From assembly GCA_029289095.1 (NCBI GenBank), contig JARFUG010000005.1:11914-75913 (forward strand): a DNA stretch of 64,000 bases, given 5' to 3'. Shown one piece after another: positions 18,625 through 49,000 of the stretch; within the stretch, counting starts at the first letter, position 1, and every line of letters starts with the position of its first letter. The notes under the pieces were generated by a model. It was not told where the DNA came from and made no database searches. It saw nothing but the letters and a program-made list of their open reading frames with translations. Source of the DNA: Desulfuromonadales bacterium (GTDB lineage: Bacteria > Desulfobacterota > Desulfuromonadia > Desulfuromonadales > JACZKF01). The translations under genes were made by a program, and so were the position numbers.

Positions 18625-19794
18625 ATGAAGATCGAGATCGTCTCCAGTCAGGAATCGTTCGCCTCCCTGAGAGAGCCCTGGAGCGAACTGCTCGAAAAAA
18701 ATCCGGCGGTAGACTTCTTCCTCTCCCACCCCTGGCTCTACTCGTGGTGGGAAGTCTTCGCACGGGGGCGTGAGCTCTCGATCTTCGTGTGCCGCCACGG
18801 GAGCGACGGAAGGGTCGTCGGAATCCTCCCGGCCTTTATGGAAAACGGTGGAGGTCTCTCGTCGCGACGCATGCGGCTGCTGGGGAGCGAGTTCGTCAGT
18901 TCGGATTTTCTCGGCATTCTCGTCGATCCGCACAGCAAAGAAGAGACCCTGAAGGCGCTTCTCGATGCTCTCCATCACGGCGAGCAGCTCTGGGATCTGC
19001 TCGATTTCGAGGCGCTCGATTCACAGGGAGACCTGCCGGCGCTCCTGCATGAAACGGTTGCGAAAGGGGAGGGGCGCCGGATTCTCATCGAGCCCGGCGA
19101 AACGTGCCCGGCGCTGGTTCTTCCGGGCGACTGGGAGACGTACCTGCGTGCGCTGACGAAAAAGATGCGCTCCAACGTCCGGTATTTCCGCAAGGTGCTG
19201 GAGCGCCGCGGCGCCGTGGAGTACGAAATGATTGAATCGCCGGAGCAGTTCGAAGGGGCGCTGAGTGATGTGATGCGTCTTCGCCGTCGCTGGATCGAGG
19301 CGCGCGGGTACTCGAGCCCGTGCCCTTTTCCCCTCTACGCCGATTTTCACCGCCGCCTGTGGAGGCGCTCGATTCCCGAAGGGGGTGTCCACATCCGCTT
19401 CCTGCGCTACAACGGGCGTCGCATCGCTTTCGCCTATCTTCTGCGCCTGGGAGCGAGCGTTTACTACTACCAGACCGCCTTCGAGCAGGAATTCGCCAGT
19501 CGCAGCGTCGGTTCCGTCCTTCTCGGCCACCTTATCGAAGAGGCGATCGCCTGGGGGTGCACCCGCTTCGAGTTCCTGCGCGGGGATGAACAGTACAAAT
19601 TCAAATGGGGAGAGGTGCGAGAGCGCAGGCTCGCAAGGGTGAAGGTCTACAACGCCACCGGCGCCGGGCGCTGGAGCTACGGCATCGACACGGCTCTGGG
19701 GAGCGCGCGGAGGATGGTGAAGGGACTGGCGCCGGGAAGGACGGAGGACAGAGGACGGAGGACGGAGGACAGCAAACTCCCCCTCCTTGATTAG
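18625..19794 (+). CDS. FemAB-fold GNAT acyltransferase (CelD/BioF2-like, Acetyltransf_6 type)
   Basis: 389 aa. C-terminal signature FEFLRGDEQYKFKWG. Length and layout match four other paralogs in the window. The last ~19 aa (GRTEDRGRRTEDSKLPLLD) are encoded by the heptamer array. Confidence 0.7.
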   Translation: MKIEIVSSQESFASLREPWSELLEKNPAVDFFLSHPWLYSWWEVFARGRELSIFVCRHGSDGRVVGILPAFMENGGGLSSRRMRLLGSEFVSSDFLGILVDPHSKEETLKALLDALHHGEQLWDLLDFEALDSQGDLPALLHETVAKGEGRRILIEPGETCPALVLPGDWETYLRALTKKMRSNVRYFRKVLERRGAVEYEMIESPEQFEGALSDVMRLRRRWIEARGYSSPCPFPLYADFHRRLWRRSIPEGGVHIRFLRYNGRRIAFAYLLRLGASVYYYQTAFEQEFASRSVGSVLLGHLIEEAIAWGCTRFEFLRGDEQYKFKWGEVRERRLARVKVYNATGAGRWSYGIDTALGSARRMVKGLAPGRTEDRGRRTEDSKLPLLD

Positions 19795-19801
19795 GAGGGG
19801 G
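19739..19801. repeat. heptamer array GGACGGA/GGACAGA x5 followed by an 8-bp hairpin spanning the stop codon
   Basis: Units at 19739, 19746, 19753, 19760 and 19767. CCCCCTCC (19779-19786) pairs with GGAGGGGG (19794-19801). The loop TTGATTA contains the TAG stop. Confidence 0.9.
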
Positions 19802-19854
19802 TTGGGGGGTGGTGGAGATCGTGACAAGACGCCGCGAAGCGGCCCGGAGCTCAA

Positions 19855-21048
19855 ATGAATATTCCCCCACAGGAAAACACCTATTCGCTGGCCCACAGCG
19901 CCGAGGGGTACGTCGTCATCGATTCGCTGCGGTGGGGAACGAGTGCCGGGGGGGTGAGGATATCGGGGGACATGACCCTGGCCGAGGTGCGGGCTCTCGC
20001 GCGGGAGATGAGCTGCAAGTTCGGATTCTTCGACCTTCCGCGCGGCGGGGCCAAGAGCGGCATCCGCATGCCGGGAGTTCTCGGTGTCAAGGAGCGGCGG
20101 GACGTTCTCGAGGACTTTGGGAGCAGGCTCAAACCGCTCATCGTCTCGGGGCGATACTACCCCGGGATGGACATGAACTGCGGCCCCGGCGATCTGCAGG
20201 CGATCTATCGCGGGGCCGGCCAAGAGGTCGACGGTTTTACCGACACCTCCTTCTACACCTCCTTATCGGTCGCGCACGCCCTGATGGCGTGCCGCCGGAT
20301 ATCGTTTCCACCCGATCGCCCCCTCACCCTGGCGGTGGAGGGGTTCGGAAGGGTCGGCGCGCACCTCGCCCGCCGACTCCCCCCGCAAGCGTTTCGCATC
20401 ACGGCACTTTCGACTCTTGCCGGAGGGGTGAGCAGCGAGAGCGGATTCGACCCTGAAGACCTCGCACGTCTGCGCGACAAACACGGCGACTCCCTGGTGG
20501 AGCATCTTCCGGGAAAGAGGATCGAGAAGCGCGAGATCCTGAGCTCTTTGGTCGATATCCTCGTCCCTTCGGCGCGCACCTGGAGTATCGACATCGAAAC
20601 CGCCTCGAAGCTTCGCGCCGCCTGCGTCGTGCCGGTCGCCAACGTCCCCTACGCCGAAGGGGTCTCCGAACTCCTACATCGGCGGGGAGTCCTCTGCCTT
20701 CCGGGGTTCGTCTGCAATGGGGGTGGGGTCTTCGCCTCGTCCCTGGCCGACAGCGCGGTGGAGGGGGAGCGCATCGAGGCGATCTGTCGGGACTTCTATC
20801 AGCCGATGGTCGAAGAGCTGATCCGACGCAGTCGCTCCCTTGGCATCTCGCCCGTCGAACTTGCGCAGCAGGTTGCCTTGCGGCGACTCGAAAGAGGGGA
20901 AGGGGGGAGGGTCGGTCCCATTCTGAAGCGGGTCTATCGCCGCGGGTTGTTCCCGCCGCAGCTCTACGGGTATTTGGTGCAACACCTCTTCGGGCGCAAT
21001 CTGACGGCCCTCGAGAGAATGATTCGGGGTCAACCCGTGAAGGGATAG
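19855..21048 (+). CDS. Glu/Leu/Phe/Val amino-acid dehydrogenase family protein
   Basis: 397 aa. SAGGVRI...LPRGGAKSGI (substrate/Lys region), NAD fold VEGFGRVGAHLARRL, and VPVANVPY. Confidence 0.65.
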   Translation: MNIPPQENTYSLAHSAEGYVVIDSLRWGTSAGGVRISGDMTLAEVRALAREMSCKFGFFDLPRGGAKSGIRMPGVLGVKERRDVLEDFGSRLKPLIVSGRYYPGMDMNCGPGDLQAIYRGAGQEVDGFTDTSFYTSLSVAHALMACRRISFPPDRPLTLAVEGFGRVGAHLARRLPPQAFRITALSTLAGGVSSESGFDPEDLARLRDKHGDSLVEHLPGKRIEKREILSSLVDILVPSARTWSIDIETASKLRAACVVPVANVPYAEGVSELLHRRGVLCLPGFVCNGGGVFASSLADSAVEGERIEAICRDFYQPMVEELIRRSRSLGISPVELAQQVALRRLERGEGGRVGPILKRVYRRGLFPPQLYGYLVQHLFGRNLTALERMIRGQPVKG

Positions 21049-21051
21049 ACG

Positions 21052-22351: not shown

Positions 22352-22365
22352 TATCGGAGTTCTTC

Positions 22366-23745: not shown

Positions 23746-25293
23746 ATGAAGATCAAGTCGGTCAACCGCCGCATCGCACTGAACGCCTCGACCAATTTCG
23801 TCCGGTTCGGGTCGCAGGTGGTCATCGTCTTCCTCATGACGCCCTTCATCATCGGAAGCGTGGGGGATGCGTCCTATGGGGTGTGGGTGGTGATCCTGTC
23901 GTTCGCCGGCTATGCGGCGATTCTCGAGTTCGGTGTTCACGAATCTCTGATCAAGCTCGTCTCCAAGTACGAGACGCTCGGCGACGCAGCAAAAATCAAC
24001 CAGGTCTTTTCCATCGCCTTTCTCTTCATGGCGTCTCTGGCGCTTCTCTCCTTCACTATACTGTTCTGGATCGTCCCCGGCGCCCTGCCGCGCCTTCTCG
24101 GAGAAGGAGCGGATCTGCAAACTGCCACGCTTCTGCTGAAAATCGTCGCCTTCGATGCGGTCCTGATGCTGATGAATTTCTCCTTCTCCGGCATGATCTA
24201 CGGTTTCCAGCTCTATCACATCAAGAACACCCTCGACATTTTCATCGGTCTGGTCAGCCCCCTGGTCGTCTACATCCTGATTCGCCTCGATTACGGGGTC
24301 CTCTCGCTGGCGTACGGCACGATTCTCTTCAATGCGCTCAACCTGCTCATCTTCTCCAGCCTGTGCAAGTACCACTTTCGCCCCCTGCGCCTTGTCTACG
24401 GCAGCGGCAGCTTCACCGCTGTGCGGGAAATCCTTGCCGTCAGCTCGCGCCTTTTCACCTCGGCCACTGCCCTCAGGCTCGCCCGCAATTCGCAGCCGCT
24501 GGTGATCGCCTGGTTTCTCCCCCCGGCCTGGAACGCCTTCTACGCCGTTCCGGCGCGTCTGGCCGATTACGGCAACGAACTGCTGTACGTCCTCTCGAGG
24601 GGGTTCATGCCGATCTTCAGCGAATACCACTCCCGCGGCGATCGCGCGGCGATTCGCGAGCTCTATTTTCGCTTCACGCGCTTCATCGTCGCCGGCTTCT
24701 TCCCCCTGATCCTCTCGCTGCTCGTTTTCGGGGAGAGCTTTCTGTCGATCTGGATGTCGGCGGAATACGCCGAAAAAGGGAAATGGGTTCTGCTGTTTCT
24801 GACCCTTTCGATCTTCGTGCAGAGCTGCCAGCCACTTTGGGCCAAACTTCTCATCGGTGTCGAGCGTCTGGGCGTGATTGTCTCCGTCAACGTCTCGGTC
24901 TCGATTCTCCAGATCGTCCTCGGGATCGTTCTGGTTGCGGCGTACGGGATCGACGGCATGGCGCTGAGCATTCTGTGCGCCATGTTCGTCAGTCAGTTCA
25001 TCTATTTCCGCTACGTCGCCCGTTATCTGGAGACGACTCCCTGGGATTACATTCGCGGCTGCCATGTCCGGGCGCTCCTCGCATCGGCGGTCTTCTTCGC
25101 GCTCATCTCTACACTCAGGGGAACGTTCCCTCCGCAGAGCTACTTCGCGATCCTCTGGCAGCTCGCTTTCGGTTTTGCCGTCTATATTCCCCTGGCCTGG
25201 TTCCTTGTGCTGAGCCGGAACGAGCGCCGCGTTCTCAACGAGAAGGTCGCCGGGCGTTTCGGAGCCGGAGCGGCCAAGGAGCTCGAGCCATGA
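23746..25293 (+). CDS. oligosaccharide-unit flippase (Wzx, MOP superfamily)
   Basis: Start at ATG 23746. About 12-14 TM helices. N-terminus NASTNFVRFGSQVVIVFLMTPFIIGSVGDASYGVW is typical of polysaccharide biosynthesis (Wzx) proteins. Confidence 0.8.
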   Translation: MKIKSVNRRIALNASTNFVRFGSQVVIVFLMTPFIIGSVGDASYGVWVVILSFAGYAAILEFGVHESLIKLVSKYETLGDAAKINQVFSIAFLFMASLALLSFTILFWIVPGALPRLLGEGADLQTATLLLKIVAFDAVLMLMNFSFSGMIYGFQLYHIKNTLDIFIGLVSPLVVYILIRLDYGVLSLAYGTILFNALNLLIFSSLCKYHFRPLRLVYGSGSFTAVREILAVSSRLFTSATALRLARNSQPLVIAWFLPPAWNAFYAVPARLADYGNELLYVLSRGFMPIFSEYHSRGDRAAIRELYFRFTRFIVAGFFPLILSLLVFGESFLSIWMSAEYAEKGKWVLLFLTLSIFVQSCQPLWAKLLIGVERLGVIVSVNVSVSILQIVLGIVLVAAYGIDGMALSILCAMFVSQFIYFRYVARYLETTPWDYIRGCHVRALLASAVFFALISTLRGTFPPQSYFAILWQLAFGFAVYIPLAWFLVLSRNERRVLNEKVAGRFGAGAAKELEP

Positions 25294-26930
25294 TGAGACC
25301 AACTTCCCTGATCGCCTTTGTTCTGCTCTTTCTCTGGACGGCGCCAGCCGCTGCGGGAGAGCGCCTAATAGACGGTCCGGCGATCCTCGACCAGGAAAAC
25401 GCCAGCTACCGGCTGACGGTCGATATCGAGGCGAACTCCACCCCCTTCGTCATCCGCGCTTCGGGGGTGACCCTCGATCTCGGCGGGCGCGCCATCACCG
25501 TGCGATGCCGCGAGGGGGAAGAGGGGGCGATCCACGCCGTCGCCGTCGAAGGGCATCATCTGAAACAGATCCGGATTCTGAACGGCTCCCTGAGCCAGCG
25601 CGGCCAGTGCCGCGAGAGCCATCCGGTCCATATGCCTTCCGGGGTGCACGGCGCCGAAATCGCCCACCTCGCCATCGACTACGAGTCGCCGGACGCCTCG
25701 GCCATTCGCATGCACTGGGGGGAGCATTCGCGCATCCATCACAACGTGATCGACGATCGCGGTCAGGTCGTTTCCAATCGTCACCAGGGGGTGGCGGCTA
25801 TCGATGCAGGGCGGGGGGAGGGGATGCGCATCCACGACAACACCATCCGTCGCACCCGGCATATCGGGATTCGGACGGCGGAAGGGGCCGAAATCCGCAA
25901 CAACGCGGTGCATATCGACAGCGTCGCCACGAACTCGACGGGGATCTTCGCCGCAGGAGGCGTCGTGGCGCACAACCGGGTGACGGGGGAGGGGGTTCAC
26001 CCCATCGGCATCTGGCCGGGAAACGATATCCGGGTCTTCGGGAACTACGTCCGGGTGGGAAACACCCGCTTCGGCGAAGAGTACGGCAACACCGGCGCCG
26101 CCTGCCTGCGCATGACCTGGGGAAACGACGCCGTGGAGGTGACCGACAACATCTTCATTCTCGATGCCGAAGGGGCTGCAGCGGAACCGGATTTGGAAAG
26201 CTGGGGGAGGGCGCTTTGGGTGGGGCTCCCCGAGCCGGGCCAGAGAGCGCTCTTCGCCCGCAACCTCATCGTCGCCAGCAGCCGCGAAGGGCGCGCCAAA
26301 GCGGCCGCTATCGCCGTGGTGTGCGACAACGCCTCTTCAGGGCTCGTCTTTCTGGAGAACACCGTCATCAGCAACTGGGGGGCGGTGCTGCTCGCCGACG
26401 ATTACGGGCACGCTGACGGCTACGCGCGTTTTGTCGAGAACACCTTCGTGCGCCAGGGGGATTCTCCGGAGTTTCGCACTGTGCGCAGCGATTATCCCGA
26501 ATACCCGAGTACGGGGATCTTCATCGACAACCTCTGCCTGGGGGGCGCTTCCTGCACGGAGGCCGACCTGGAGTGGGGGGGGGCGGGTCTGAAGGAGGTC
26601 GGCTTCGGCCGCCGAGTCGTCTTTGTGCTGACGGACGCTTCGGGACGCCCCCTTGCCGATGTCTCCGTGGAGATCGTCGACGCAGAGAGTCTCTCTCGTT
26701 TCGAGGGGCGAACCGATGAGAACGGGGAGATTCCGGCAGAACTCGTCGATTACTTTCTCACCAACCAGGTCGCGATGCTCATGGCATCCGGCGAGAGGGA
26801 ATTCCCGGTGCGCCGCCGCGCAACGTCCGCCCTCACGATGCGTCGGGGAGAAATGGAAAGCCGAAAATCCGTCCACACCGGAACGGAAGAGCTGCCGCGC
26901 ACGATCCGGTTAAAATTCGTCGTCGATTAG
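25290..26930 (+). CDS. secreted right-handed beta-helix (PbH1/CASH-like) protein, paralog 1
   Basis: ATGA overlap with wzx (25290-25293). Signal peptide MMRPTSLIAFVLLFLWTAPAAAG. Repeated xNxI/V beta-helix rungs (HHNVIDD, IHDNTI, IRNNAV, AHNRV, FGNYV, TDNIF). C-terminal CarboxypepD_reg-like beta-sandwich (VVFVLTDASGRPLADVSVEIVD...TDENGEI). Shares blocks with 28076 and 30316. Confidence 0.7.
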   Translation: MMRPTSLIAFVLLFLWTAPAAAGERLIDGPAILDQENASYRLTVDIEANSTPFVIRASGVTLDLGGRAITVRCREGEEGAIHAVAVEGHHLKQIRILNGSLSQRGQCRESHPVHMPSGVHGAEIAHLAIDYESPDASAIRMHWGEHSRIHHNVIDDRGQVVSNRHQGVAAIDAGRGEGMRIHDNTIRRTRHIGIRTAEGAEIRNNAVHIDSVATNSTGIFAAGGVVAHNRVTGEGVHPIGIWPGNDIRVFGNYVRVGNTRFGEEYGNTGAACLRMTWGNDAVEVTDNIFILDAEGAAAEPDLESWGRALWVGLPEPGQRALFARNLIVASSREGRAKAAAIAVVCDNASSGLVFLENTVISNWGAVLLADDYGHADGYARFVENTFVRQGDSPEFRTVRSDYPEYPSTGIFIDNLCLGGASCTEADLEWGGAGLKEVGFGRRVVFVLTDASGRPLADVSVEIVDAESLSRFEGRTDENGEIPAELVDYFLTNQVAMLMASGEREFPVRRRATSALTMRRGEMESRKSVHTGTEELPRTIRLKFVVD

Positions 26931-26992: not shown

Positions 26993-27697
26993 ATGAAACT
27001 TTCCGAACTGAGAAGAAAGGTGCTGACGATAGAGAAGGTTGTTTTCTACTCTCTCGATTTGCGGCAGTGGCAGACGCCGTCTTTGCCCCGAATGCGGCTG
27101 CCGGTCAGATTTGCCTTCGGGAGAGAAGAAGACATCGAATGCATGGCGGCCGACGACAGACTCAATCTCGGAGGGCGCAGCGATTTCTATCTGCAGAAGC
27201 TGCAGATGGGACACAAGCTGCTGCTCGGAACACGGAACGAGGAGATCCTCTTTTATCTCTGGGTCGTTTCGGGGGAGAAGATCCTGATGAACAAAGTGTT
27301 GGCGCTCGAGCCGCAGCAGATCGCCATCGAGAGGGCCTTCGTCCGCAAGGACGTGCGCGGACACGGCCTCTTCGTCCACGGTCTCAATTACCTTCTCCCA
27401 CTGGAAAAGGAGGAGGGAGCGGCGAACTGCCTGACGGAGGTGAGCTGCAAGAACAGGCCGATGACCCACACCGTGCTGAAATACGGTTTCGAGCGCCTCG
27501 ACTCCTCCTACTACTGGATCTCCCATCCGCTGCGTCATCACGCCATCGTCCTCGGTCCGCTGCGAAAGCGCAGCCGCCCCAACACCATCATCTCGCCGAT
27601 GGCAGGCGCGCAGGGGAGGTATCTATGGAAGGCAGAAGCCAGAAGCCAGAAGCCAGGAGCCAGGAGCCAGGAGCCAGGAGTAAGGAATAAGGAATAA
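26993..27697 (+). CDS. small GNAT-like N-acetyltransferase (tentative)
   Basis: Start at ATG 26993. ERAFVRKDVRGHGLFVHGLNYL resembles GNAT motif A (R-x-x-G-x-G/A). The C-terminal ~20 aa are encoded by heptamer arrays, and the stop is the third TAA of TAAGGAA x3. Confidence 0.45.
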   Translation: MKLSELRRKVLTIEKVVFYSLDLRQWQTPSLPRMRLPVRFAFGREEDIECMAADDRLNLGGRSDFYLQKLQMGHKLLLGTRNEEILFYLWVVSGEKILMNKVLALEPQQIAIERAFVRKDVRGHGLFVHGLNYLLPLEKEEGAANCLTEVSCKNRPMTHTVLKYGFERLDSSYYWISHPLRHHAIVLGPLRKRSRPNTIISPMAGAQGRYLWKAEARSQKPGARSQEPGVRNKE

Positions 27698-28005: not shown

Positions 28006-28075
28006 CCTTTGAGCTCCCGGCCGACGCATAAGCCGTCGGAACCGGGCTTTTCAAATGAACAAGGAGATCACGAGA

Positions 28076-32236: not shown

Positions 32237-32334
32237 CTGGGGCCGGGTGGGTGGGAGGCTTCATTAAATGTAGGAAAACTTTACAATGAAGCCTTCTCGC
32301 CTAATTTCTGTTGTATTTTCAGATAGATACGATC

Positions 32335-32350
32335 TGGCCCGGAGTTTGCT
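32335..32350 (+). promoter_or_regulatory. sigma-54 (-24/-12) promoter candidate for the PEP-CTERM cargo gene
   Basis: TGGCCC-GGAGT-TTGCT with exact spacing, 47 nt upstream of ATG 32397. A perfect 10-bp inverted repeat AGGCTTCATT (32256-32265) / AATGAAGCCT (32285-32294) lies 41-79 nt upstream. Confidence 0.6.
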
Positions 32351-32396
32351 ATTCAATGAGAACAAACCCCAACCACCCCTTTCCAAAGGAGGGAAC

Positions 32397-40058: not shown

Positions 40059-41228
40059 ATGAGAATTGCCGGAAAAGTGCAAAAGGCGGGGGCGCTGCTG
40101 TGGTCGGATCTCAAAGGCCTGGCGAAAAGAGAGATTGATTTTCACCGGGCGCGGCCACGAACCGCGATTTTGATTCTGACCTACCGATGTGATTCGAGAT
40201 GCAAAACCTGCTCCATGTGGCGCAGGGATGCCGGCGGCGAAATGGAGAAGGAACTCGAGCTGTCTCAATGGAAAGCGATCGTAGACAAACTGAGCAATGA
40301 AGGAATCCGGGTCTTCGAACTCTTCGGCGGGAACATCCTGCTGAGGAAAGAACTAGTGATGGAGCTTACGAGATATCTGTTCGGCAAGGGTGCGATCATT
40401 CACATCCCCACCAATCAACTGGGACTCGACGACGAAATCGCAGAGGCGATGGTGAATTACGTCGACACCGTCTATCTCTCCACGGACGGGACGGGAAACA
40501 CGCAGGACGCGATCAGGGGTATCGACGGTTCGGAGCGTATCGGCAGAGACGCCGTCGACAGGCTGCTTATGAAGCGCAGGGCTGCCCGAAGGCAGAGAGG
40601 GCGACTGAGAATCGTATGCAACTGCACCGTGTCGAAATATAACTTCGATCGCCTCGAAAGAATCGTCGAATACGCCGAGAGCAAATGTTTCGACGAAGTG
40701 CATTTTGAATACGCGGGGGAATTTCGGAGACCCACCGTCGAGAACTCCAGAATACTCGATATCACCCCGGAGCCTCACTACCTGAATGAGGGCGAATCGA
40801 TTCTGGTCAACCGGGAACAGGCTGTCGTCATCAAGGAAACCCTGCGAAAGATACGTCGAAAATACGCAAGCGGCCCTTTAAAGATCACGACGCTGAATAT
40901 CGATTCCATGTCGCTCGCAAACCTGTATAAGGGGAGCATACCCCACAAAAAATGCTATCTGGAGCGTTGTGAAGTCACCGTGGACCCTTACGGGAACATG
41001 GTTGCCTGTCCCTTCATCACCAACTTCATACTGGGAAATTGTCTCGAGGGAGAATTCACCAAAGTATGGAACGGCCCAAGACACAAGGTGTTCAGAAAGG
41101 CCCAGAACTCCGGTCGTCTCCCCATGTGCAGGAACTGCATTCTCGGAGTCCAGTGGAATCACGGAATCGCCAAGTCCCTGCATCGGATCTATCTCACCCG
41201 ATTCAGACCCGCCATTACAGGGACGTAG
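40059..41228 (+). CDS. radical SAM enzyme with C-terminal SPASM/twitch-like Cys-rich domain
   Basis: ILTYRCDSRCKTCSMW (CX3CX2C). The C-terminal segment CYLERCEVTVDPYGNMVACP...GNC...MCRNC includes CX12C with GX4C, plus CX2C. AAGGAA RBS. Confidence 0.85.
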   Translation: MRIAGKVQKAGALLWSDLKGLAKREIDFHRARPRTAILILTYRCDSRCKTCSMWRRDAGGEMEKELELSQWKAIVDKLSNEGIRVFELFGGNILLRKELVMELTRYLFGKGAIIHIPTNQLGLDDEIAEAMVNYVDTVYLSTDGTGNTQDAIRGIDGSERIGRDAVDRLLMKRRAARRQRGRLRIVCNCTVSKYNFDRLERIVEYAESKCFDEVHFEYAGEFRRPTVENSRILDITPEPHYLNEGESILVNREQAVVIKETLRKIRRKYASGPLKITTLNIDSMSLANLYKGSIPHKKCYLERCEVTVDPYGNMVACPFITNFILGNCLEGEFTKVWNGPRHKVFRKAQNSGRLPMCRNCILGVQWNHGIAKSLHRIYLTRFRPAITGT

Positions 41229-41233: not shown

Positions 41234-42361
41234 ATGAAGTTGCGAGGGAGCGTAGAGACAAAAACGAGTCTGAAACTTGGGCGCCTGGCATCGGTCGAGG
41301 AGCTGACAGGCGTCGCCGGCGCCTGGGACGATCTGTGGGAGAGAAGCGAGGTCTGTTCGCCCAGAGCCAGGGCATCCCTTCTTGCCCTGTGGATCAAGAC
41401 ATTTTCCAAGGACGGCGATTTCCAGGCGCTGACCGTAGAAGCCGACGGGAAACTCGTAGCGGCACTCCCGCTGATCCTCCAAAAATATAAGGGGTTCCTC
41501 AAGGTGGGAACGGTCGCCTCGAATCTGATCGCCGCAGGAGGAGACTTCCTTCTCGATCCGGAGTGCGATGTCGGACAAGTGCTGAAGCTGACGGCGTCGG
41601 CTCTGTCGAGGCTTCCAGTGGCTTTCCTGCATTTCGACGGCATCCCCGTGGAGGAGCAGAGGTGGAGGGGGCTTCTGGGGGCGATGGCCGCGGATGGGCA
41701 GCTCATCGACGTGTCCGAGCAGTACAGGGTAGGGCGGGTGTCGATTGAAGGACGATGGGCGGATTACGAGGCAGGGCTTTCGCGAAATCATCGCCGAAAT
41801 CGGCGTCGCCAGGCAAAACTCCTCGATGAATGCGGAGGGGCGACCTTGAGGGTCTTCTCCCGAATCTCCGCCGATGAGCTCGAGCCCCTTCTCCGAAGAG
41901 GCTTCGAGGTCGAAGACCGCAGTTGGAAGGGGAAAGAAGGAACTTCGGTACTGAAGTCAGCCGGGATGTTCCAGTTCTTCTGCCGCGAGGGAGCCTGCCT
42001 GTCCGAGCGGGGGGAGCTCGAACTGGTTTTTCTCGAGCACGGCGCAACGCCGATGGCCTTTCTGTACGGATGGAACTCCAAGGGGATGCGCTTCGCTCCC
42101 AAAGTTGGTTATGACGAGTCCTTCGAGAGATATGGACCGGGGCAACTGCTGATGATGAATTTCATCCAACGCCTTCATGAGGAGCCGCTCCCTCTCAAAC
42201 TCGATTTTCACGGGCCGCTGATGCCCTGGACGCAGAGCTGGGCGACGGAATCCTATCCCCTGGGGCGGATTGTCGCAACAACGCATCACCCCTTGAGCAG
42301 GTCTCTTTTCCGTCTCAACTTCAATGTCAAGCCTCTTCTCAAGGGGAGCCGAAGGGGTTGA
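41234..42361 (+). CDS. FemAB-fold GNAT acyltransferase (CelD/BioF2-like)
   Basis: Start at ATG 41234. FEVEDRSWKGKEGTSV and PKVGYDESFERYGPGQLLM motifs shared with the other paralogs. Confidence 0.7.
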   Translation: MKLRGSVETKTSLKLGRLASVEELTGVAGAWDDLWERSEVCSPRARASLLALWIKTFSKDGDFQALTVEADGKLVAALPLILQKYKGFLKVGTVASNLIAAGGDFLLDPECDVGQVLKLTASALSRLPVAFLHFDGIPVEEQRWRGLLGAMAADGQLIDVSEQYRVGRVSIEGRWADYEAGLSRNHRRNRRRQAKLLDECGGATLRVFSRISADELEPLLRRGFEVEDRSWKGKEGTSVLKSAGMFQFFCREGACLSERGELELVFLEHGATPMAFLYGWNSKGMRFAPKVGYDESFERYGPGQLLMMNFIQRLHEEPLPLKLDFHGPLMPWTQSWATESYPLGRIVATTHHPLSRSLFRLNFNVKPLLKGSRRG

Positions 42362-42388: not shown

Positions 42389-43600
42389 ATGAATCAAGCA
42401 GAAGTCCAGATCCTTAACGTTCCAGACGTGCAGATTGTCGAGAGCGACCGGAAACTCATGACGATCAGGGTGGTTGTCGGATTGGATGGGATGGACGAAA
42501 TCAGAAACGAATGGATGAACCTGACGAAGCTGCAGGGCAATCGCGGGATTCATCAGGCCTTTGGATGGGTCCGGGCCGCCTACGAGACGCTTTCGAGAGG
42601 CGATAAGCCGTATATCGTCGTTCTGAGGACCGACCGTGGGAAAATCGTTGCCATAGCTCCATTGGCGCTTGGATACGGAAAATACAGGGGAATCACGATC
42701 CGGAAGCTGGGGTTCGTCAGGAACGACCAGAGCCCGTGCAACGACTTCATTCTCCATCCCGGGTTCGAAAAAGATGCGATGTTCGTTCTGCTGGAGCACC
42801 TGAACACATTCATGGATTGGGAGATGGTCGACCTGCACCAGGTGGACATCGACGGCCACACGGGGAAGGCCATCAAGAGCCTCATGGAAAGATTCCCTTA
42901 CTGCTCGTACGAGAAAAAGAACAGACAGAGCCCCTATCTCGTCTTCGAGAAAGGCTGGAACGAATTCTGGGGTGGAAAATCGAGGAGACTCAAAAAGTCG
43001 ATCAACAACAAGCTGAACCGGCTGGGGATGGACTACCAGGTCGAGAAGCGAAGGATTTCCGACGCCACGGCGCAGGAATTGGCAGAAATCGTCCGGATTT
43101 CGCAAAAGAGCTGGAAGCGGCGCATCGGCGCAGAACTCGCGGTCTGCAGCGACAACTGGAAATTCTACACGGAGATCTGCAACCATTTCGGCCCCGAGGG
43201 GTGTATCCATGTCTGGATCCTGAGAATCGAAGGGATTCCCGTCGCCTTCGAGTTCCATGTCGAGTACGGAGGAGTCCAGTATCCGATAAAAGCCGACTAT
43301 GACGACGACTTCAAAAAGCTCTCTCCCGGCTCCATTCTCGAATACGAAATCATCAGGAGATCTTTTAACGATCCAGGGTTGTCAGCCTACCATTCATGCG
43401 CACATAGCTATGATTATCTTCTCAAATGGACCCAAACAATCAGGGATCATCGGAACTATGAATTTTTTGCGCCAAAGATCAAGACGATAATATTGTATAA
43501 ATTCGAATACGAATTGATGAAGCTTGTGCGAAAAAGTCGATTGTACAGGTGGTACAAGGAAAGACAGTGCAGGGAGGGATTGCAAGGGGAAGCGCTATGA
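42389..43600 (+). CDS. FemAB-fold GNAT acyltransferase (CelD/BioF2-like)
   Basis: ATG 42389 (GAGG RBS), or TTG 42362. ISQKSWKRRIG and IKADYDDDFKKLSPGSILEYEII motifs. The 3' third is visibly AT-richer than the rest of the locus. Confidence 0.7.
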   Translation: MNQAEVQILNVPDVQIVESDRKLMTIRVVVGLDGMDEIRNEWMNLTKLQGNRGIHQAFGWVRAAYETLSRGDKPYIVVLRTDRGKIVAIAPLALGYGKYRGITIRKLGFVRNDQSPCNDFILHPGFEKDAMFVLLEHLNTFMDWEMVDLHQVDIDGHTGKAIKSLMERFPYCSYEKKNRQSPYLVFEKGWNEFWGGKSRRLKKSINNKLNRLGMDYQVEKRRISDATAQELAEIVRISQKSWKRRIGAELAVCSDNWKFYTEICNHFGPEGCIHVWILRIEGIPVAFEFHVEYGGVQYPIKADYDDDFKKLSPGSILEYEIIRRSFNDPGLSAYHSCAHSYDYLLKWTQTIRDHRNYEFFAPKIKTIILYKFEYELMKLVRKSRLYRWYKERQCREGLQGEAL

Positions 43601-44286
43601 AAGCCGAAATGGGTATTTTGGCTAAAACAATGGGTGAATACAGTAAAAAAGGTTTGAAAGGAGTTCTACATAAAGTTCTATTAAAGACACGGAAGTATGT
43701 TTTTTACACGACTAAATCGACATGGTACCAATTCGATATGGCCGACAGCTTGACAAGAATAGACAATATGTTTGGATTGGATTGCGAATTTCTTGTCTCT
43801 GACAAATCCACTTTAATAGAATGGCTCAAAGTCAATCATAGTATTTACCCGTGGATCTATTTTGAAAAAGAAATTGAATCGGCAATAAGAAATGACCATG
43901 TTTTTGCTGTTGTCAGTCATAAGAAATCATTTGTAGGGTATATAAAAGTTGGAATCGGTTCAACTTATATTCACGATTTTGATGTAAACATTGTTTTTCC
44001 GCCTCGAACAGCATTCGTTTACGACACATTTGTTCTGCCCGAGTGGCGCGGGAAGAATGTGGCTGTTTATGCTCTCCTCACCCTGGCCGATTACCTGAAG
44101 CACAGGGGATTCGAGAGAATTCTCTGCCACATCGAAGACTGGAATCAGTCTTCTGTGCGTACATTCAGTAAAGCGTACTTCTATCCCAGAAATACGGTCA
44201 GGTTCATTCGAATTGCAGAGATGGGATTCTATGTCCTGGACAGGCGCCGCCTCTACAGAAAACTCGAACCTTATGTCGCTGGATGA
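43597..44286 (+). CDS. GNAT-family N-acetyltransferase (tentative), in an AT-rich patch
   Basis: ATGA overlap at 43597-43600. YDTFVLPEWRGKNVAVYALLTLADYLKHRGFERILCHIEDWNQSSVRTFSKAYF fits GNAT motifs A and B. The 5' two-thirds of the gene has a markedly AT-rich composition. Confidence 0.55.
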   Translation: MKAEMGILAKTMGEYSKKGLKGVLHKVLLKTRKYVFYTTKSTWYQFDMADSLTRIDNMFGLDCEFLVSDKSTLIEWLKVNHSIYPWIYFEKEIESAIRNDHVFAVVSHKKSFVGYIKVGIGSTYIHDFDVNIVFPPRTAFVYDTFVLPEWRGKNVAVYALLTLADYLKHRGFERILCHIEDWNQSSVRTFSKAYFYPRNTVRFIRIAEMGFYVLDRRRLYRKLEPYVAG

Positions 44287-44316
44287 GATCTCACGGGACT
44301 GCATGGGAGTGGACGC

Positions 44317-45354
44317 ATGTATCTTATCGTCAGTATCGATGTTGAGGAGGATAATTGGGGCGAGTACGACCCCCTCGACTATTCCGTCGAAAACCTCAGG
44401 AAGGTGCCGGGTCTTCAGGATATTTTCGATCGCTTCGAGATCACGCCGACCTATCTCGTCAACTATCCCGTGGCGAGCGATCCCTGGGCCGTCGAGATGT
44501 TTTCCCGTTACGCCGAACTCGGCAGGTGCGAGATCGGGATGCACTGCCATCCCTGGAACACCCCGCCGTTCTCCGACACAGCACATCAAGGCGACAGCAT
44601 GCTGTGCAACCTGCCTGCCGGGGTGCAGTTCGAGAAGCTAAACTTCCTGCACGAGACGATCCGGAAGAACATCGGCGTCGCTCCGGTCTCCTTCCGGGCG
44701 GGTCGCTGGGGGTTCGGTCCTGAAACTGCCGCAGTCCTCGATCGTCTCGGATACAAGGTAGACACTTCGGTTACCCCTTTCGTGAGCTGGAAAGGATTGG
44801 GAGGTCCCGACTATACCGATTTCGGACTGGCGCCTTTCCGTTTCCGCTGCGACGACATCGCGCAGGCAAACGAAAAGGGTCCCCTCCTGCAGGTGCCTGC
44901 GACGGTCGGCTTTCTTCAGTCCAGCTACTCTCTTTGCCGTCTGATGAAAAAGATGGCCGAGAACCGTATCGGAAGGATGATTCACCTCAAGGGAATCCTG
45001 TATCGCTGCGGATTTTTGAACCAGGCCTGGCTCTCTCCGGAGCTCTCGGATGTGCGAACCATGATCAGGCTGGCCCAGAGGATCGAAAAGCTGAATTACC
45101 CCTGCCTGAACATGACCTTCCATTCAAGCAGCCTGAAAGAGGGGCTCAGCCCCTTCGTCGGGATCGGCGAAGAAGCTCGTTTCCTCGAGAAGATAAAGGC
45201 GTTCCTGTCGTTTGCACGGCAGTCCGGATATGCCTCGGTGAGCCTGAAGGAGTTTGCGCAGCGCTATTCATGTGCAATCGAGATCGATCGGTCCGGCGCT
45301 GCGCGGAGCGGGGCCGGAGGACGCAATGCTCACCCGCAGGCCGCGAATGAATGA
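44317..45354 (+). CDS. polysaccharide deacetylase-like protein (WalW-type, divergent CE4)
   Basis: MYLIVSIDVEEDNWGEYD parallels the TVDVEDYF start of the 9603 deacetylase. CEIGMHCHPWNTPPF and VSFRAGRWGFG motifs. Confidence 0.55.
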   Translation: MYLIVSIDVEEDNWGEYDPLDYSVENLRKVPGLQDIFDRFEITPTYLVNYPVASDPWAVEMFSRYAELGRCEIGMHCHPWNTPPFSDTAHQGDSMLCNLPAGVQFEKLNFLHETIRKNIGVAPVSFRAGRWGFGPETAAVLDRLGYKVDTSVTPFVSWKGLGGPDYTDFGLAPFRFRCDDIAQANEKGPLLQVPATVGFLQSSYSLCRLMKKMAENRIGRMIHLKGILYRCGFLNQAWLSPELSDVRTMIRLAQRIEKLNYPCLNMTFHSSSLKEGLSPFVGIGEEARFLEKIKAFLSFARQSGYASVSLKEFAQRYSCAIEIDRSGAARSGAGGRNAHPQAANE

Positions 45355-45429
45355 ATCCATCTCCGCCGATTCTGCCCTGAACCGGCCGTGACCATAAGAG
45401 CCGAAGCGCATCGCCGAAGGGGGTGATCT

Positions 45430-46575
45430 TTGAGCAGGTCAGTGAAACTGGAAGTCCTTGCCGAATGCTGTGATCACGAGTCGCTGATCCATCAGTGGGA
45501 TGAGATCCTGGCGCAGAGCGTTTCGGCCCGGCTCTTCGAAAGCCCTCTATGGGTGCTGAACTACTGGAGGTATCGCTGCGGAGCAAAGAATGCGCTCAGC
45601 TTCATCACCGGGAGAGACGAAGATGGCAGAATGGTCGCAATCCTCCCCTTCGTCAAGAAGCCGCAGCCCGGGGCGCCGTTCCTTTCCACCTGGGAATGCG
45701 CGCATTCCACCGGTGAGTATGAATCGAACTGGACCTGTCATCCCGATTATGCCGGACGATTCGCATCGGCCCTCCTGGATCACCTGAACAGTCACCGGCA
45801 TCTCTGGTACCAGATGAAGATGACGGTCGTGCGGGAAGACTCCTCGGCGCTGACGGCTCTGCTGCCCGCATGCAGACAAAGCGGCTTCTCGATCATCTCG
45901 GCACCCGGCCGGGAGGTGCCTTTTATTCCCATCACCGATTCAGCATCCCTCGAGGACGTGGTCGACGGCAAGTACAGGCGGGAAATGAGGAGACGTCAGA
46001 ACAAGCTGGAGAAGGTGAACCCCTTGAAATTCGAGCTTTACTGTGATCAGGAGGGGCTCGATCCGGCCCTTGACGAATTCTTCGCGGTGGAGGCTTCCGG
46101 GTGGAAGGGGCGTGGAGGGAGCGCCATTCGCGACGACGACTCGGCGGAGCGGTTCTGGAGACAACTTTCGCATGATGCGGCCCGCCGCAGGCAATTGAGG
46201 CTGCATCTTCTGCGTTCGGGAGATGGGGTCATCGCAGGGCAGCTCGGGATCGTCTTCGCAAAGACCTACTATTGTCTGAAGATCGGCTATGACGACAGAT
46301 ACGGGGAATTCGGCCCGGGAGCCCTGACGACCCGCGAGGCGGTCCGGCACTGCCTCGAAGATCCGCAGATCGATGTCTATGACTTTGCAGGCGCGGCGCT
46401 GCCTTACATGAGGAATTGGACGGACCGGACCTACAGGACTTGGAGCATTCAGATCGGCTCTACCCATGCGGCGCTGGGGGGCGTTTTCGATCTTGTCCGA
46501 CACGGCCGGGGGACGCTGCGCTCCCTTCGGCGGGCGATCACAGGGAGGAATGACAATGTCTCCGAAAACACCTGA
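45430..46575 (+). CDS. FemAB-fold GNAT acyltransferase (CelD/BioF2-like)
   Basis: FFAVEASGWKGRGGSAI and LKIGYDDRYGEFGPGALTT motifs. Start uncertain (TTG 45430 or GTG 45442). Confidence 0.7.
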   Translation: MSRSVKLEVLAECCDHESLIHQWDEILAQSVSARLFESPLWVLNYWRYRCGAKNALSFITGRDEDGRMVAILPFVKKPQPGAPFLSTWECAHSTGEYESNWTCHPDYAGRFASALLDHLNSHRHLWYQMKMTVVREDSSALTALLPACRQSGFSIISAPGREVPFIPITDSASLEDVVDGKYRREMRRRQNKLEKVNPLKFELYCDQEGLDPALDEFFAVEASGWKGRGGSAIRDDDSAERFWRQLSHDAARRRQLRLHLLRSGDGVIAGQLGIVFAKTYYCLKIGYDDRYGEFGPGALTTREAVRHCLEDPQIDVYDFAGAALPYMRNWTDRTYRTWSIQIGSTHAALGGVFDLVRHGRGTLRSLRRAITGRNDNVSENT

Positions 46576-46619
46576 AGGACCGGTGCGCCCCGGCAGGTGC
46601 GCGAAAGAGAGGCGATCGC

Positions 46620-47912
46620 GTGGGCGGCTTGCATGATTTCCAGGACAAACGCAGGGCTGCTGTTGAACCGGGACCCGCCGGGCGCTATGAATGGAAGGCC
46701 TCCGATGTGCCGGGCATCCGTCCGGGGATGCTCCTTCCGCGGATCGGGGTTCGAGGATCGGTCTTCCCCTTCAGCGCCAGGGGAATCGGCTATTACTACT
46801 ATGCGCGAAACGGAATTTTCGCCCTGTGCAGACACTGGCGTCTGGAAGGGCGCGAGGTCCTGTTTCCGTCTTATTTTCACGGTGTCGAACTCGAGGCGCT
46901 CCTGGCTGCCGGAGTTCGTCCGAAATTCTATCCGGTCAACGCTGAGATGCAGATCGATATCGACGCACTGACGGCGCGGATCACTCCTGAAACGCAGGCC
47001 GTCTACATGATTCACTATCTCGGGTTTCCAGGTCCCGTCGAGGCTCTTCGCGAGATCTGCCGTGAGCGCAAGCTCAAGCTGATCGAGGATTGCGCTCTTG
47101 CTCTGCTGTCGAAAAAGGGGAGCCGACCTCTGGGGTCGTTCGGTGACGCGGCCGTATTCTGCCTGTACAAGTCGCTCCCTCTGCCGACGGGAGGCGCCCT
47201 GGTGCTCGGCAGCAAAGAGAGCGCTTCCTTTGCGACCAGGCGCGCGCCGTGGCGGGCAGCATGGAGCAATCTGGGTTCCTCACTGGTGCAGCACTTCGAG
47301 CGCCGCGGAAACCGGCTGGCCCAGAGCGCTCTGAACGGGACCCGCCTCGTGATGAAGACGGCGGCTCGTCTAACGGGTACGGAATGGGTCGGGGTGGGGG
47401 GGCAGCATTTCGAAATCGATAGAGCGCATCTCGGAATGAACAGCCTCAACCACGTTCTCGTGGCCGGGCAGAATTACAGACAGATCGTCAAGACGCGTCG
47501 ACGCAACTACCTCTTTCTCCTGCGCCATCTCTCGCCTTTGTCCCGACCGGTATTTGCCGATCTGCCCAAAGGGGTGTGCCCTCTTTTCTACCCGTTGAGG
47601 GCGCCCTTTGAAAAACAGGAATTCATCGATCGCCTGCATGCCCGCAGGGTCATGGCCGTCAACTTCTGGCTGCAGGGGCATCCGTCCGTAACGCCGGAGG
47701 CGTTTCCCGAATCGGATCGGCTGCGTCGCACGATTCTTGAGATCCCCTGTCATCAGGATCTGGACGAATCCGACATGCTCAGGATTACTGATATTGTCAA
47801 GGAGGAATGGGGGCGGATGCTCCAGAACTGCTGCATGCGCGGCAGCGGTCCCGGCGTGCCGGTGCACGATGAGCCGCTTCTGCACATGACAGACAAGACG
47901 CAGGGGCGCTGA
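46620..47912 (+). CDS. DegT/DnrJ-like PLP-dependent enzyme (divergent)
   Basis: VLFPSYFHGVE, LIEDCALALLS, AVFCLYKSLPLPTGG (candidate Lys), and TILEIPCHQDLDESDM C-terminus. Start uncertain (GTG 46620 or ATG 46728). Confidence 0.6.
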   Translation: MGGLHDFQDKRRAAVEPGPAGRYEWKASDVPGIRPGMLLPRIGVRGSVFPFSARGIGYYYYARNGIFALCRHWRLEGREVLFPSYFHGVELEALLAAGVRPKFYPVNAEMQIDIDALTARITPETQAVYMIHYLGFPGPVEALREICRERKLKLIEDCALALLSKKGSRPLGSFGDAAVFCLYKSLPLPTGGALVLGSKESASFATRRAPWRAAWSNLGSSLVQHFERRGNRLAQSALNGTRLVMKTAARLTGTEWVGVGGQHFEIDRAHLGMNSLNHVLVAGQNYRQIVKTRRRNYLFLLRHLSPLSRPVFADLPKGVCPLFYPLRAPFEKQEFIDRLHARRVMAVNFWLQGHPSVTPEAFPESDRLRRTILEIPCHQDLDESDMLRITDIVKEEWGRMLQNCCMRGSGPGVPVHDEPLLHMTDKTQGR

Positions 47913-49000
47913 TGTCCGATCTGTCGATCACCGTTATTGAATCTCTCGACGAGTGGAACAATCTGGCTCAGGAGTGGCGAACGCTCCTTTCGGACTCCAG
48001 GTCGGAATCCTTTTTTCTGCGGTGGGAGTGGCTCTCGGCCTGGGTCGATTGCTGCCTCGGTGACGACCGACAGCTCTTCGTGCTGGCTTTCCGTGAAAAG
48101 GAGGCCCTTGTGGGGATCGCTCCCCTCTATATCAGCCTGAAGAAATACGGCCCCTTTCCCATACGGGAAGTGCGTCTGCTCGGTTCTCCCGACGGCGGCT
48201 CCGACTATCTCGACGTCATCTCCAGGCGTGGGAGGGAAAGGGTTGTCGCCGATGCGCTTTACGACTATCTGATGGGGGAGGGCGCGAAAAGATGGGACAT
48301 CCTTTACCTGCAGGATATCCCCGCCGATGCCCTCTTCATTCTGTACTTTATGAAAAGGATTCAGGCCGAAGGCAAGTACGCCGAACTGGTGCAGGGTTCC
48401 TACTGCCCGATCGTCGAACTTCCCGAATGTGAGAACACCCTGCTCAAAGAGCTGTCGCAGTGGAGAAGAAAGAAGTTCAAGCAGGACATCCGGGTGCTCC
48501 ATCGCGAGCAAAATGTTGTCCACTCGGTTCTCGTGGGAGATGACGTCGCCGCCGGCCTCGAAACTTTCTTCCGGCTCTATGAGGAAAAAGGAGGGTGGCC
48601 CGCGGAGGGACTCAGAAGTCTCATCCGAAGCTTTCTCGCAAGATGTGGTGACGACAAGCCGCTTCAGCTCGATCTGCTCTCGGTCGACAACCGGGCTGTG
48701 GCAGGGCTTCTCCATCTGAAGCACAACGATACGATAGCGATGTACCTGATGGCGGTCGACAAGGAGTTCAATCCCAAGATAAGTCTGGGCAACCTGCTGG
48801 TAGGGCTGTGCCTGAAAAACTCCATCGCAGCAGGACACGCCTTCTACGATTTTCTGAAAGGGGACGAGAGCTACAAGTTCCATTGGGCGACGGGAGGAAA
48901 GAGCAGCATGAATCTGCTCTTCTGGCAGAAGCGTCCGGCCGCGACGATAGTCGCTCTCAACAGGCTCCTGCGGCACGCAGGGAAGCTTATCCTGAGATGA
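47912..49000 (+). CDS. FemAB-fold GNAT acyltransferase (CelD/BioF2-like)
   Basis: TGATG overlap at 47910-47914. C-terminal FYDFLKGDESYKFHW signature, compare FLRGDEQYKFKWG in 18625-19794. Confidence 0.7.
   Translation: MSDLSITVIESLDEWNNLAQEWRTLLSDSRSESFFLRWEWLSAWVDCCLGDDRQLFVLAFREKEALVGIAPLYISLKKYGPFPIREVRLLGSPDGGSDYLDVISRRGRERVVADALYDYLMGEGAKRWDILYLQDIPADALFILYFMKRIQAEGKYAELVQGSYCPIVELPECENTLLKELSQWRRKKFKQDIRVLHREQNVVHSVLVGDDVAAGLETFFRLYEEKGGWPAEGLRSLIRSFLARCGDDKPLQLDLLSVDNRAVAGLLHLKHNDTIAMYLMAVDKEFNPKISLGNLLVGLCLKNSIAAGHAFYDFLKGDESYKFHWATGGKSSMNLLFWQKRPAATIVALNRLLRHAGKLILR

Follow-up and report, generated by a model that had tools for sequence, protein, structure and literature searches.

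Proteins of the CelD/BcsL and HfsK type and the FemAB-like protein of exosortase A (XrtA) systems, TIGR03019, are already known from bacterial exopolysaccharide (EPS) loci. In canonical XrtA loci, TIGR03019 directly follows the deacetylase TIGR03006. FemX-like (PF13480/TIGR03019) proteins are widespread in EPS loci, the literature searched gives no defined donor, acceptor or product for them, and to our knowledge no defined chemistry has been described for CelD/BcsL. HfsK of the Caulobacter holdfast and its two paralogs act additively in a pathway with the deacetylase HfsH (PMC5362036). In FemX of W. viridescens, Lys305, which follows Phe304, is the only residue of the active site that is reactive; for DhpH-C, the corresponding Lys329 is indispensable, and Orf11 aminoacylates the amino sugar streptothrisamine from Gly-tRNA (PMC12945691). 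Sba18, a tRNA-dependent peptide synthase, was crystallised with the amino-sugar compound streptothrisamine (9wqy). Here, a stretch of 64,000 nucleotides from a Desulfuromonadales bacterium (assembly GCA_029289095.1, contig JARFUG010000005.1, positions 11,914 to 75,913; hereafter the window) was analysed computationally. GC3-filtered calling of open reading frames (ORFs) and Pfam and NCBIfam scans showed that about 2.0–60.9 kb of its + strand form one XrtA/PEP-CTERM EPS locus, which contains six genes of the PF13480 family, named A to F in their order (Table 1).

By their sequences, the six paralogs fall into three ancient classes, namely B alone, A and F (class 1), and C, D and E (class 2). 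Classes 1 and 2 differ in the retention of the FemX Lys and recur adjacent to each other or fused, and the genes are systematically coupled to deacetylases.

Six FemX-fold proteins in three classes

A sequence-only reading of the window had proposed six FemAB-fold paralogs in one polysaccharide locus, and this number was confirmed. All six ORFs matched PF13480 (Acetyltransf_6; CelD/BcsL/BioF2-like; gathering score 22 bits) with 69–111 bits, and the family hidden Markov model returned exactly A to F over all ORFs of the window, without a seventh copy. The gene at 36187 (B), which the same reading had taken for the canonical PEP-CTERM-associated FemAB gene, scored 403.3 bits against TIGR03019 (equivalog cut-off 260.35). 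As A, C, D, E and F gave no match to this model in the NCBIfam scan, B is its sole member among the six. B was also the only one to pass PF02388 (FemAB, gathering score 24 bits); E stayed below the threshold with 19.3 bits and no match was obtained for A, C, D and F in the Pfam scan. Secondary Pfam matches were FemAB for B and E, FemAB_like for B and F and, weakly, LPG_synthase_C for D. The PF13480-type family is large, with about 12,000 representative clusters at E-values ≤1e-3, and many homologs of A, E and F are labelled "CelD/BcsL family acetyltransferase" by JGI.

The proposed FemAB/FemX fold was borne out by the Pfam matches and by AlphaFold2 models of A and E, the two paralogs that were modelled and compared with the PDB by Foldseek. 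Both models (pLDDT 92.2 for A and 92.5 for E) showed a tandem GNAT with a long C-terminal helix. The best match of E was W. viridescens FemX (E-value 2e-15, TM score 0.6–0.69), followed by the glucosamine N-acetyltransferase region of a fungal enzyme (4zm6, with a lower TM score), Sba18/Sbb17, the C-domains of MprF and the acetyl-CoA-dependent tandem GNAT 2wpw. A was closest to Sba18 (9wqy, E-value 1.7e-13) and then to FemX, FemA and MprF. The top matches were nearly all transferases dependent on aminoacyl-tRNA (aa-tRNA). Their TM scores of 0.6–0.73 compare with 0.40–0.57 for the acetyl-CoA tandem GNATs, which mostly ranked below them. Of the PDB searches by sequence, which used A, B, E and the family profile, only the one with B reached FemX.

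The classes are separated by their motifs. In sequence alignments, B has FRFKKQWG where S. aureus FemX (6snr) has FKKVWG, and A and F carry YKF(K/H)W at the aromatic-Lys position of FemX. Among 118 orthologs of F, at least 95% retain this Lys (K322 in F). At the aligned position, C, D and E show W-T, Y-L and Y-M, respectively, and the loss is common to their orthologs: the C ortholog of locus L007 (55% identical) likewise has no Lys, and Y326-M327 of E is invariant in nine orthologs. Class 2 carries a motif of the EASGWKG type, full in E and reduced to SWK in C and D. C, D and E fall in a large subclade with the (L)EASGWKG motif, in which other members retain both motifs. The sequence-only reading had taken these motifs as common to all five proteins other than B; they turned out to be mutually exclusive, with FL[RK]GDExYKFxW in A and F only and SWKG/SWKR/GWKG in C, D and E only. 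Since enzymes of the MprF type have an Arg in place of the Lys, its loss is no proof of inactivity.

Other features run through the paralogs. In motif A of GNATs, the pyrophosphate loop Q/R-x-x-G-x-G/A, the GxG/A is replaced by SVG, SPG, GPG or CPN, as in FemX. A basic helix with 6–9 Lys/Arg per 23 residues opens the second GNAT domain of all six, and the parts of S. aureus FemX and Sba18 that align with it are basic as well; such a helix has been described as common to aa-tRNA transferases (PMC6103681).

The paralogs are only 18–26% identical to each other in pairwise comparisons. Five of them have one-to-one orthologs in a metagenome-assembled genome (MAG) of the Desulfuromonadales, GCA_050485365.1 (A 55%, C 55%, D 40%, E 53% and F 64% identity). 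The same MAG encodes the DegT-like pyridoxal phosphate (PLP) enzyme DegT2 (70%), the radical-SAM/SPASM enzyme (65%), the small GNAT (41%), the NodB-like protein (54%) and the ABC exporter (68%). A recent tandem duplication was rejected on the grounds of the low identity and the five one-to-one orthologs. E orthologs are rare (22 representatives at E-values ≤1e-30 among 1.84 billion) and strongly constrained, with 53 invariant columns across nine sequences. Orthologs of F are common, with more than 120 clusters at 41–70% identity in Desulfobacterota, Nitrospirae and other groups. Because E is constrained, F orthologs are widespread, identities are low and orthologs correspond one to one, the six genes are neither a recent amplification nor decaying copies.

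The best relatives were found in the Desulfuromonadales MAG, Geomonas and Desulfosalsimonas. A profile search of genome contigs with E alone gave zero matches, the search with the alignment of E orthologs one Desulfuromonadales MAG, and the metagenome profile search three loci; L005 and L006, reached via D, are near-identical fragments of the window. E-type loci hold one to four PF13480 copies in 3–16 kb, and two randomly sampled distant family members were single-copy within their 20-kb neighbourhoods.

Recurrent class pairs and neighbouring deacetylases

An exhaustive representative search yielded fusion proteins of 650–1160 amino acids with two or three complete PF13480 units (P0067-P0070, P0074, P0075, P0129, P0140, P0150, P0171 and P0195). 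Unit-by-unit dissection showed that most combine an A/F-class unit with a C/D/E-class unit. P0140 and P0195 hold A/F-like and D-like units, the second unit of P0140 being 35% identical to D with the same YDYLLKWT motif, while P0171 and P0150 hold A/F-like and E-like units and P0075 a class-2 and an A-like unit. Two Lys-less units are joined to one Lys-bearing unit in P0068 and P0074. A few fusions, e.g. P0067 and P0197, join units of the same class.

The same combination was seen with separate genes. In all E-type loci examined, a class-1 or FemAB-like gene lies adjacent or within a few genes. An E-like gene borders an F-like gene in L010, an A/F-like gene in L015 and a B-like gene in L011, and is accompanied by an A-like gene in L016. 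In Geomonas (L017), F is followed by an ORF of 173 amino acids and then an E/D-like gene. As fusions and adjacency give evidence of the Rosetta-stone type, class 1 and class 2 probably cooperate as pairs, whether within a heteromer or by acting one after the other, and the six would therefore not be interchangeable transferases. In the metagenomic loci L015 and L016, the E-type gene is also followed by a sulfotransferase gene (PF13469; 11180-12013 and 3926-4807, respectively), for which the window has no counterpart.

In the Desulfuromonadales MAG (L007), the gene order is shuffled to DegT1-XrtA-E-DegT2-F-EpsI-D-rSAM-GNAT-C-NodB-like-ABC (rSAM, radical SAM), and E-DegT2-F is kept in L005 and L007. 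F orthologs adjoin genes for PEP-CTERM proteins and PrsT in Geomonas and Desulfosalsimonas. A belongs to a cassette of a deacetylase, a CapK-like ligase, GT2, GT4, GT2, a 2-hydroxyacid dehydrogenase, GT4, a deacetylase, A, an ELFV (Glu/Leu/Phe/Val-type amino-acid) dehydrogenase, Wzy, GT4 and a flippase, which is conserved in a Desulfuromonadales MAG and on an ENA contig. Orthologs of A are 51–60% identical to it, and those of L001 and L003 are placed between the deacetylase and the ELFV dehydrogenase as in the window, and the 2-hydroxyacid dehydrogenase is kept in the same cassette of both loci. The amino-acid dehydrogenase at 19855 and the D-2-hydroxyacid dehydrogenase at 15334 are unusual enzymes for an EPS locus; their position near A hints at a dedicated supply of amino or hydroxy acids.

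Instead of the five deacetylase-like genes counted in the sequence-only reading, four were found. Only three genes (9603, 17575 and 56656) contain PF01522. The start of 17575 was placed by alignment to its orthologs in L001 and L003, the former being 58% identical. The fourth gene, at 44317, encodes a divergent NodB-like protein of a family (about 345 amino acids) that no Pfam or NCBIfam model matches. In hhalign against TIGR03006 deacetylases, it reached 65% probability (E-value 6e-5, 151 columns) with a profile alignment that covers the metal-binding His motif and the RAGRWG and DTSV motifs. This family always adjoins PF13480 genes, which it accompanies in four other loci, among them L007 (9524-10591), L010 (about 5714-6760) and L017 (12900-13994).

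Each of the four deacetylase or deacetylase-like genes directly precedes a gene for amide formation: 9603 the PaaK/CapK-like ligase, 17575 paralog A, the NodB-like gene paralog E and 56656 the ATP-grasp ligase. Random gene orders reproduced this in 0.08% of 200,000 shuffles (p ~0.0008), a value that is suggestive only because the categories were defined post hoc. The pairs 9603-ligase and 17575-A recur in relatives. The ligase orthologs of L001 (75% identical) and L003 bear PF27533 (CapK_C).

Two small GNATs had also been proposed, one of which stands. The gene at 43597 matched PF00583 (44 bits), corresponds to a 229-amino-acid gene in L005 and has a 41% identical ortholog in L007. The ORF at 26993, which has a 69% identical ortholog in L003 and a stretch resembling motif A (RGHG), had no Pfam or NCBIfam match even at E-values ≤1; its five weak PDB matches were all GNATs (best E-value 0.04), and it may be a cryptic GNAT.

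Proposed function and competing explanations

With moderate confidence, the locus is read as an expanded XrtA/PEP-CTERM EPS toolkit that would free sugar amines and re-cap them with non-acetyl groups, with A, B and F as transferases and C, D and E as partners. Family, fold, class split, orthology, synteny and fusions are shown by the analysis; the acceptor, donor, pairing mechanism and product are what we infer in this proposal. Deacetylases and PLP aminotransferases would expose amines, with the polymer or its lipid-linked repeat units as their substrate. Candidate sources of free amines are the three CE4 deacetylases, the NodB-like protein, the two DegT-type enzymes and possibly the radical-SAM/SPASM enzyme, whose role is conceivable by analogy with the dehydrogenase-transaminase pair BtrN/BtrS. 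The capping set would comprise the six FemX-fold proteins, the PaaK/CapK-like ligase, the ATP-grasp ligase and one or two small GNATs, with the FemX-fold enzymes re-acylating the exposed amines. A, B and F are the predicted catalytic members, most likely transferring aminoacyl groups from aa-tRNA, or else another activated acyl group, to a sugar amine, for which Orf11 and Sba18 with streptothrisamine provide the precedent. C, D and E would most likely serve as partners of class 1. They might be subunits of a heteromer that bind the substrate or carry out a second step, or they might rely on another catalytic residue or another donor. The locus points to a polymer whose amino sugars bear unusual, possibly amino-acid, N-substituents. 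Repeated de-N-acetylation and re-acylation had been put forward in the sequence-only reading. The gene context suggests such cycles and the gene order backs them. A picture of six equivalent transferases would be too simple, since the paralogs form three ancient classes, the FemX Lys is lacking from class 2 and the fusions suggest pairs.

Several points weigh against this proposal. Half of the paralogs are without the FemX Lys, and the conserved basic helix is no more than a candidate tRNA-binding helix. A passed the cut-off of the classical GNAT family PF00583 (28.1 vs 20.7 bits), and the family profile weakly matched RimI at the β4-α3 loop for the CoA pyrophosphate (E-value 5e-4). For BspF, another protein with a PF13480 domain, an acetyl/crotonyl transferase activity is reported, so that acyl-CoA may also serve as donor. 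A dedicated tRNA was rejected, with zero tRNA genes in the window, and no aminoacyl-tRNA synthetase family matched among the scanned window ORFs. In the literature searched, biochemical data were found for no CelD/BcsL-like protein of an EPS pathway, and no donor was found for HfsK. The categories of the adjacency statistic were chosen post hoc, and the locus, which comes from an uncultured MAG, is known from DNA alone.

It is unlikely that all six are ordinary acyl-CoA-dependent tandem-GNAT N-acyltransferases which place acetyl or short acyl groups on sugar amines, without amino acids or peptides. PF13480 belongs to the GNAT clan, the acetyl-CoA tandem GNATs 2wpw, 4zm6 and 5kf1 are among the structural matches, and the PF00583 score of A, the RimI-like loop and the activity reported for BspF fit the same view; yet the models of A and E are nearest to tRNA-dependent enzymes with higher TM scores, A, B and F retain the aromatic-Lys motif, and motif A of GNATs is replaced as in FemX. 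Acetylation is moreover already covered by the one or two small classical GNATs of the locus. Rather doubtful, though to be taken seriously, is a division in which only three proteins are real transferases and C, D and E are non-catalytic, i.e. pseudoenzyme scaffolds or regulators such as second-messenger effectors similar to HfsK. Neither C, D and E nor their orthologs have the Lys, and units of this type are repeatedly fused or adjacent to Lys-bearing units. HfsK is an effector of cyclic di-GMP with a basic C-terminal extension, and the models of A and E end in a long helix. Against inactive subunits, the EASGWKG-type motif could supply a substitute Glu/Lys catalytic pair (many members have both motifs), the invariant residues of E cluster in motifs typical of active sites, and the Arg of MprF-type enzymes is an example of another residue in place of the Lys.

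Two further explanations involve the attachment of PEP-CTERM proteins. The FemX-like enzymes could make an aminoacyl or short-peptide stem on de-N-acetylated sugars, which would be the nucleophile for XrtA when it attaches cleaved PEP-CTERM proteins. This is decidedly improbable, being purely analogical to FemABX and sortase of Gram-positive bacteria, and nothing here ties a paralog to protein attachment. NCBIfam names TIGR03019 and TIGR03006 as proteins of the XrtA system, L007 has xrtA on one side of E, DegT2 and F and epsI on the other, and F orthologs border genes for PEP-CTERM proteins and PrsT in Geomonas and Desulfosalsimonas; A, in contrast, sits in a sugar-assembly cassette far from xrtA. 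The idea of anchoring was also raised by the authors of the HfsK study, where the genetics favour modification of the EPS itself by HfsK rather than an anchor (PMC5362036). A more specific form, in which class 1 and class 2 are obligate two-part aminoacyl transferases that build the stem accepting PEP-CTERM proteins from XrtA, as a Gram-negative counterpart of FemABX and sortase, is highly speculative. The position of E-DegT2-F in L007 and the F orthologs beside PEP-CTERM genes give it some support. Least probable of all is that some paralogs act on a substrate other than sugar, for example a lipid, a PEP-CTERM protein or the product of peptide maturation by the neighbouring radical-SAM/SPASM enzyme. 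According to the NCBIfam matches, SPASM radical-SAM enzymes are mostly peptide maturases, D weakly matches the lipid-aminoacylating LPG_synthase_C, and BspF acts on proteins. A precursor-peptide gene, however, cannot fit beside the radical-SAM gene (36 bp; 80 bp in L007), all neighbours are sugar-pathway genes, and family members elsewhere adjoin GT4, flippase or deacetylase genes.

Make-up of the locus and comparison with known systems

The XrtA core markers all exceeded their NCBIfam cut-offs, and a gene for a PEP-CTERM protein is also present (Table 1). Both DegT-like PLP enzymes of the sequence-only reading are real. DegT1 borders xrtA in L007 too, and the divergent DegT2 retains IEDCAL and the PLP-Lys context FCLYKS. 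The radical-SAM/SPASM gene comes straight after epsI and has its ortholog in the L007 cassette; the NCBIfam scan gave zero equivalogs above cut-off for it. A peptide system similar to ribosomally synthesised and post-translationally modified peptides was considered around this gene and set aside, because the intergenic space is too small for a precursor gene.

Table 1. Positions in the window and family matches of the genes discussed; where a single number is given, it is the start.
Feature	Position	Strand	Match or remark
Priming transferase	2013	+	TIGR03013, above NCBIfam cut-off
Chain-length determinant	4237	+	TIGR03007, above NCBIfam cut-off
Tyrosine kinase	5510	+	TIGR03018, above NCBIfam cut-off
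ATPase	6807	+	TIGR03015, above NCBIfam cut-off
Outer-membrane protein	8019	+	TIGR03016, above NCBIfam cut-off
XrtA-system polysaccharide deacetylase	9603-10451	+	PF01522 + DUF3473; TIGR03006 390.6 bits (cut-off 276)
PaaK/CapK-like adenylate-forming ligase	10435-11820	+	DVU_1553-family AMP-dependent CoA ligase 128 bits, PaaK 100 bits; below cut-offs
D-isomer-specific 2-hydroxyacid dehydrogenase	15334-16296	+	PF02826 147 bits
Polysaccharide deacetylase, directly upstream of A	17575-18615	+	PF01522 98 bits
Paralog A	18625-19794	+	PF13480 110.7 bits; class 1, GDEQYKFKW, Lys kept
Divergent ELFV amino-acid dehydrogenase	19855-21048	+	PF00208 + PF02812
Conserved small ORF, possible cryptic GNAT	26993-27697	+	RGHG motif-A-like stretch
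PEP-CTERM domain protein	32286-33023	+	
PrsT	33341	+	above NCBIfam cut-off
Paralog B	36115/36187-37215	+	PF13480 69 bits; PF02388 FemAB 43.3 bits; canonical XrtA FemAB
DegT1, DegT/PseC-like sugar aminotransferase	37226/37310-38545	+	PF01041 171.6 bits
XrtA (exosortase A) + EpsI	38527-40022 (EpsI start 39366)	+	TIGR03109 223 bits (cut-off 208); TIGR02914 98.8 bits
Radical SAM/SPASM enzyme	40059-41228	+	PF04055 + PF13186
Paralog C	41234-42361	+	PF13480 82.5 bits; class 2, RSWKG, Lys replaced by Thr
Paralog D	42389-43600	+	PF13480 78 bits; class 2, KSWKR, YDYLLKW, without Lys at FemX position
Small GNAT acetyltransferase	43597-44286	+	PF00583 44 bits
Divergent NodB/CE4-like putative deacetylase	44317-45354	+	hhalign vs TIGR03006 deacetylases
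Paralog E	45430-46575	+	PF13480 102.9 bits; class 2, EASGWKG, Tyr-Met for aromatic-Lys
DegT2, divergent DegT-like PLP enzyme between E and F	46620-47912	+	PF01041 79.5 bits
Paralog F	47912-49000	+	PF13480 71.7 bits; class 1, GDESYKFHW, Lys kept
PglK/MsbA-like ABC exporter	51714-53534	+	PF00664 + PF00005; best NCBIfam PglK 332 bits, below cut-off
Polysaccharide deacetylase	56656-57663	+	PF01522 83.6 bits
ATP-grasp ligase	57670-58872	+	PF15632 + PF21360; carbamoyl-phosphate-synthase-like NCBIfam matches below cut-off

Other observations were made along the locus. Positions 51714-55440 hold the ABC exporter, which is the last gene of the L007 cassette and also occurs in L015, a low-molecular-weight phosphotyrosine phosphatase and a second gene of the Wzy_C/O-antigen-ligase type (TIGR03097-like, 133 bits, below cut-off). 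As a Wzx flippase is already encoded at 23719 and a first Wzy_C gene stands at 21052, the locus may have two routes of export or ligation. Three β-helix protein paralogs with C-terminal Ig-like or CarboxypepD_reg-like domains stand in tandem at 25293-26930, 28055-29983 and 30316-32169. Each is 41–61% identical to the single homolog of L001, which is located after the flippase, and L003 contains at least one full copy and part of a second after its flippase. The triplet seems to have arisen, at least in part, by expansion within this lineage, and the protein is a putative secreted one that modifies polysaccharides or resembles a lyase. On the - strand, 60988-62529 encodes a protein with a He_PIG (putative Ig) domain; a 43% identical homolog directly follows the F ortholog of Desulfosalsimonas (L018), and L015 has a He_PIG protein as well. 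Between 42000 and 44000, the GC content falls to 0.487 compared to about 0.60 elsewhere. This part spans paralog D and the small GNAT, which are also least conserved towards their L007 orthologs (40–41%), and later acquisition or relaxed codon usage is possible.

Searches of the literature for PF13480, Acetyltransf_6 and FemAB with exosortase returned almost nothing relevant, and no experimental characterisation of the TIGR03019 family was found. In the literature searched, no description was found of an XrtA locus with six such genes, of the split into class 1 and a class 2 that has lost the FemX Lys, or of the recurrent pairing and fusion of the classes and the accompanying NodB-like family. 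Heteromeric enzymes and aminoacylated sugar amines follow as testable ideas, for which Geomonas propionica offers a cultured entry point, with F, a class-2 unit and the NodB-like gene beside its PEP-CTERM genes. If amino acids from aa-tRNA are indeed transferred, tRNA-dependent non-ribosomal aminoacylation would extend to bacterial exopolysaccharides, and this might explain the target to which exosortase substrates are attached.

In comparison with known systems, B, unlike the other five paralogs, matches TIGR03019 as a full-length member, and its locus bears the XrtA core markers searched for. The order differs from that of canonical XrtA loci, in that the gene after the TIGR03006 deacetylase (9603) is that of the PaaK/CapK-like ligase, and B, at a distance of about 26 kb, has PrsT on one side and DegT1/XrtA on the other. 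FemX, FemA, FemB and MurM as well as Orf11, Sba18 and Sbb17 include the nearest structures for A and E (Foldseek E-values 1e-13 to 2e-15, TM scores 0.56–0.73). By sequence alignment, A, B and F retain the aromatic-Lys motif, and all six have a basic helix, a candidate for tRNA binding, at the start of the second GNAT domain. The sequence identity to this group is only 10–18%, the PF02388 threshold is reached by B only, C, D and E are without the Lys, and the predicted acceptor is a polysaccharide or a lipid-linked repeat unit instead of a peptidoglycan precursor or an antibiotic. CelD/BcsL and BspF share PF13480 with the paralogs; BspF differs as a secreted effector that is reported to acylate host proteins from acyl-CoA. 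By its description, HfsK resembles the paralogs in its FemX-like double GNAT, in EPS modification, in the deacetylase partner and in the C-terminal extension (PMC5362036). The HfsK paralogs are three non-redundant proteins, about 30% identical to each other and dispersed in the genome, whereas the window has six in one locus, with two pairing classes plus TIGR03019.

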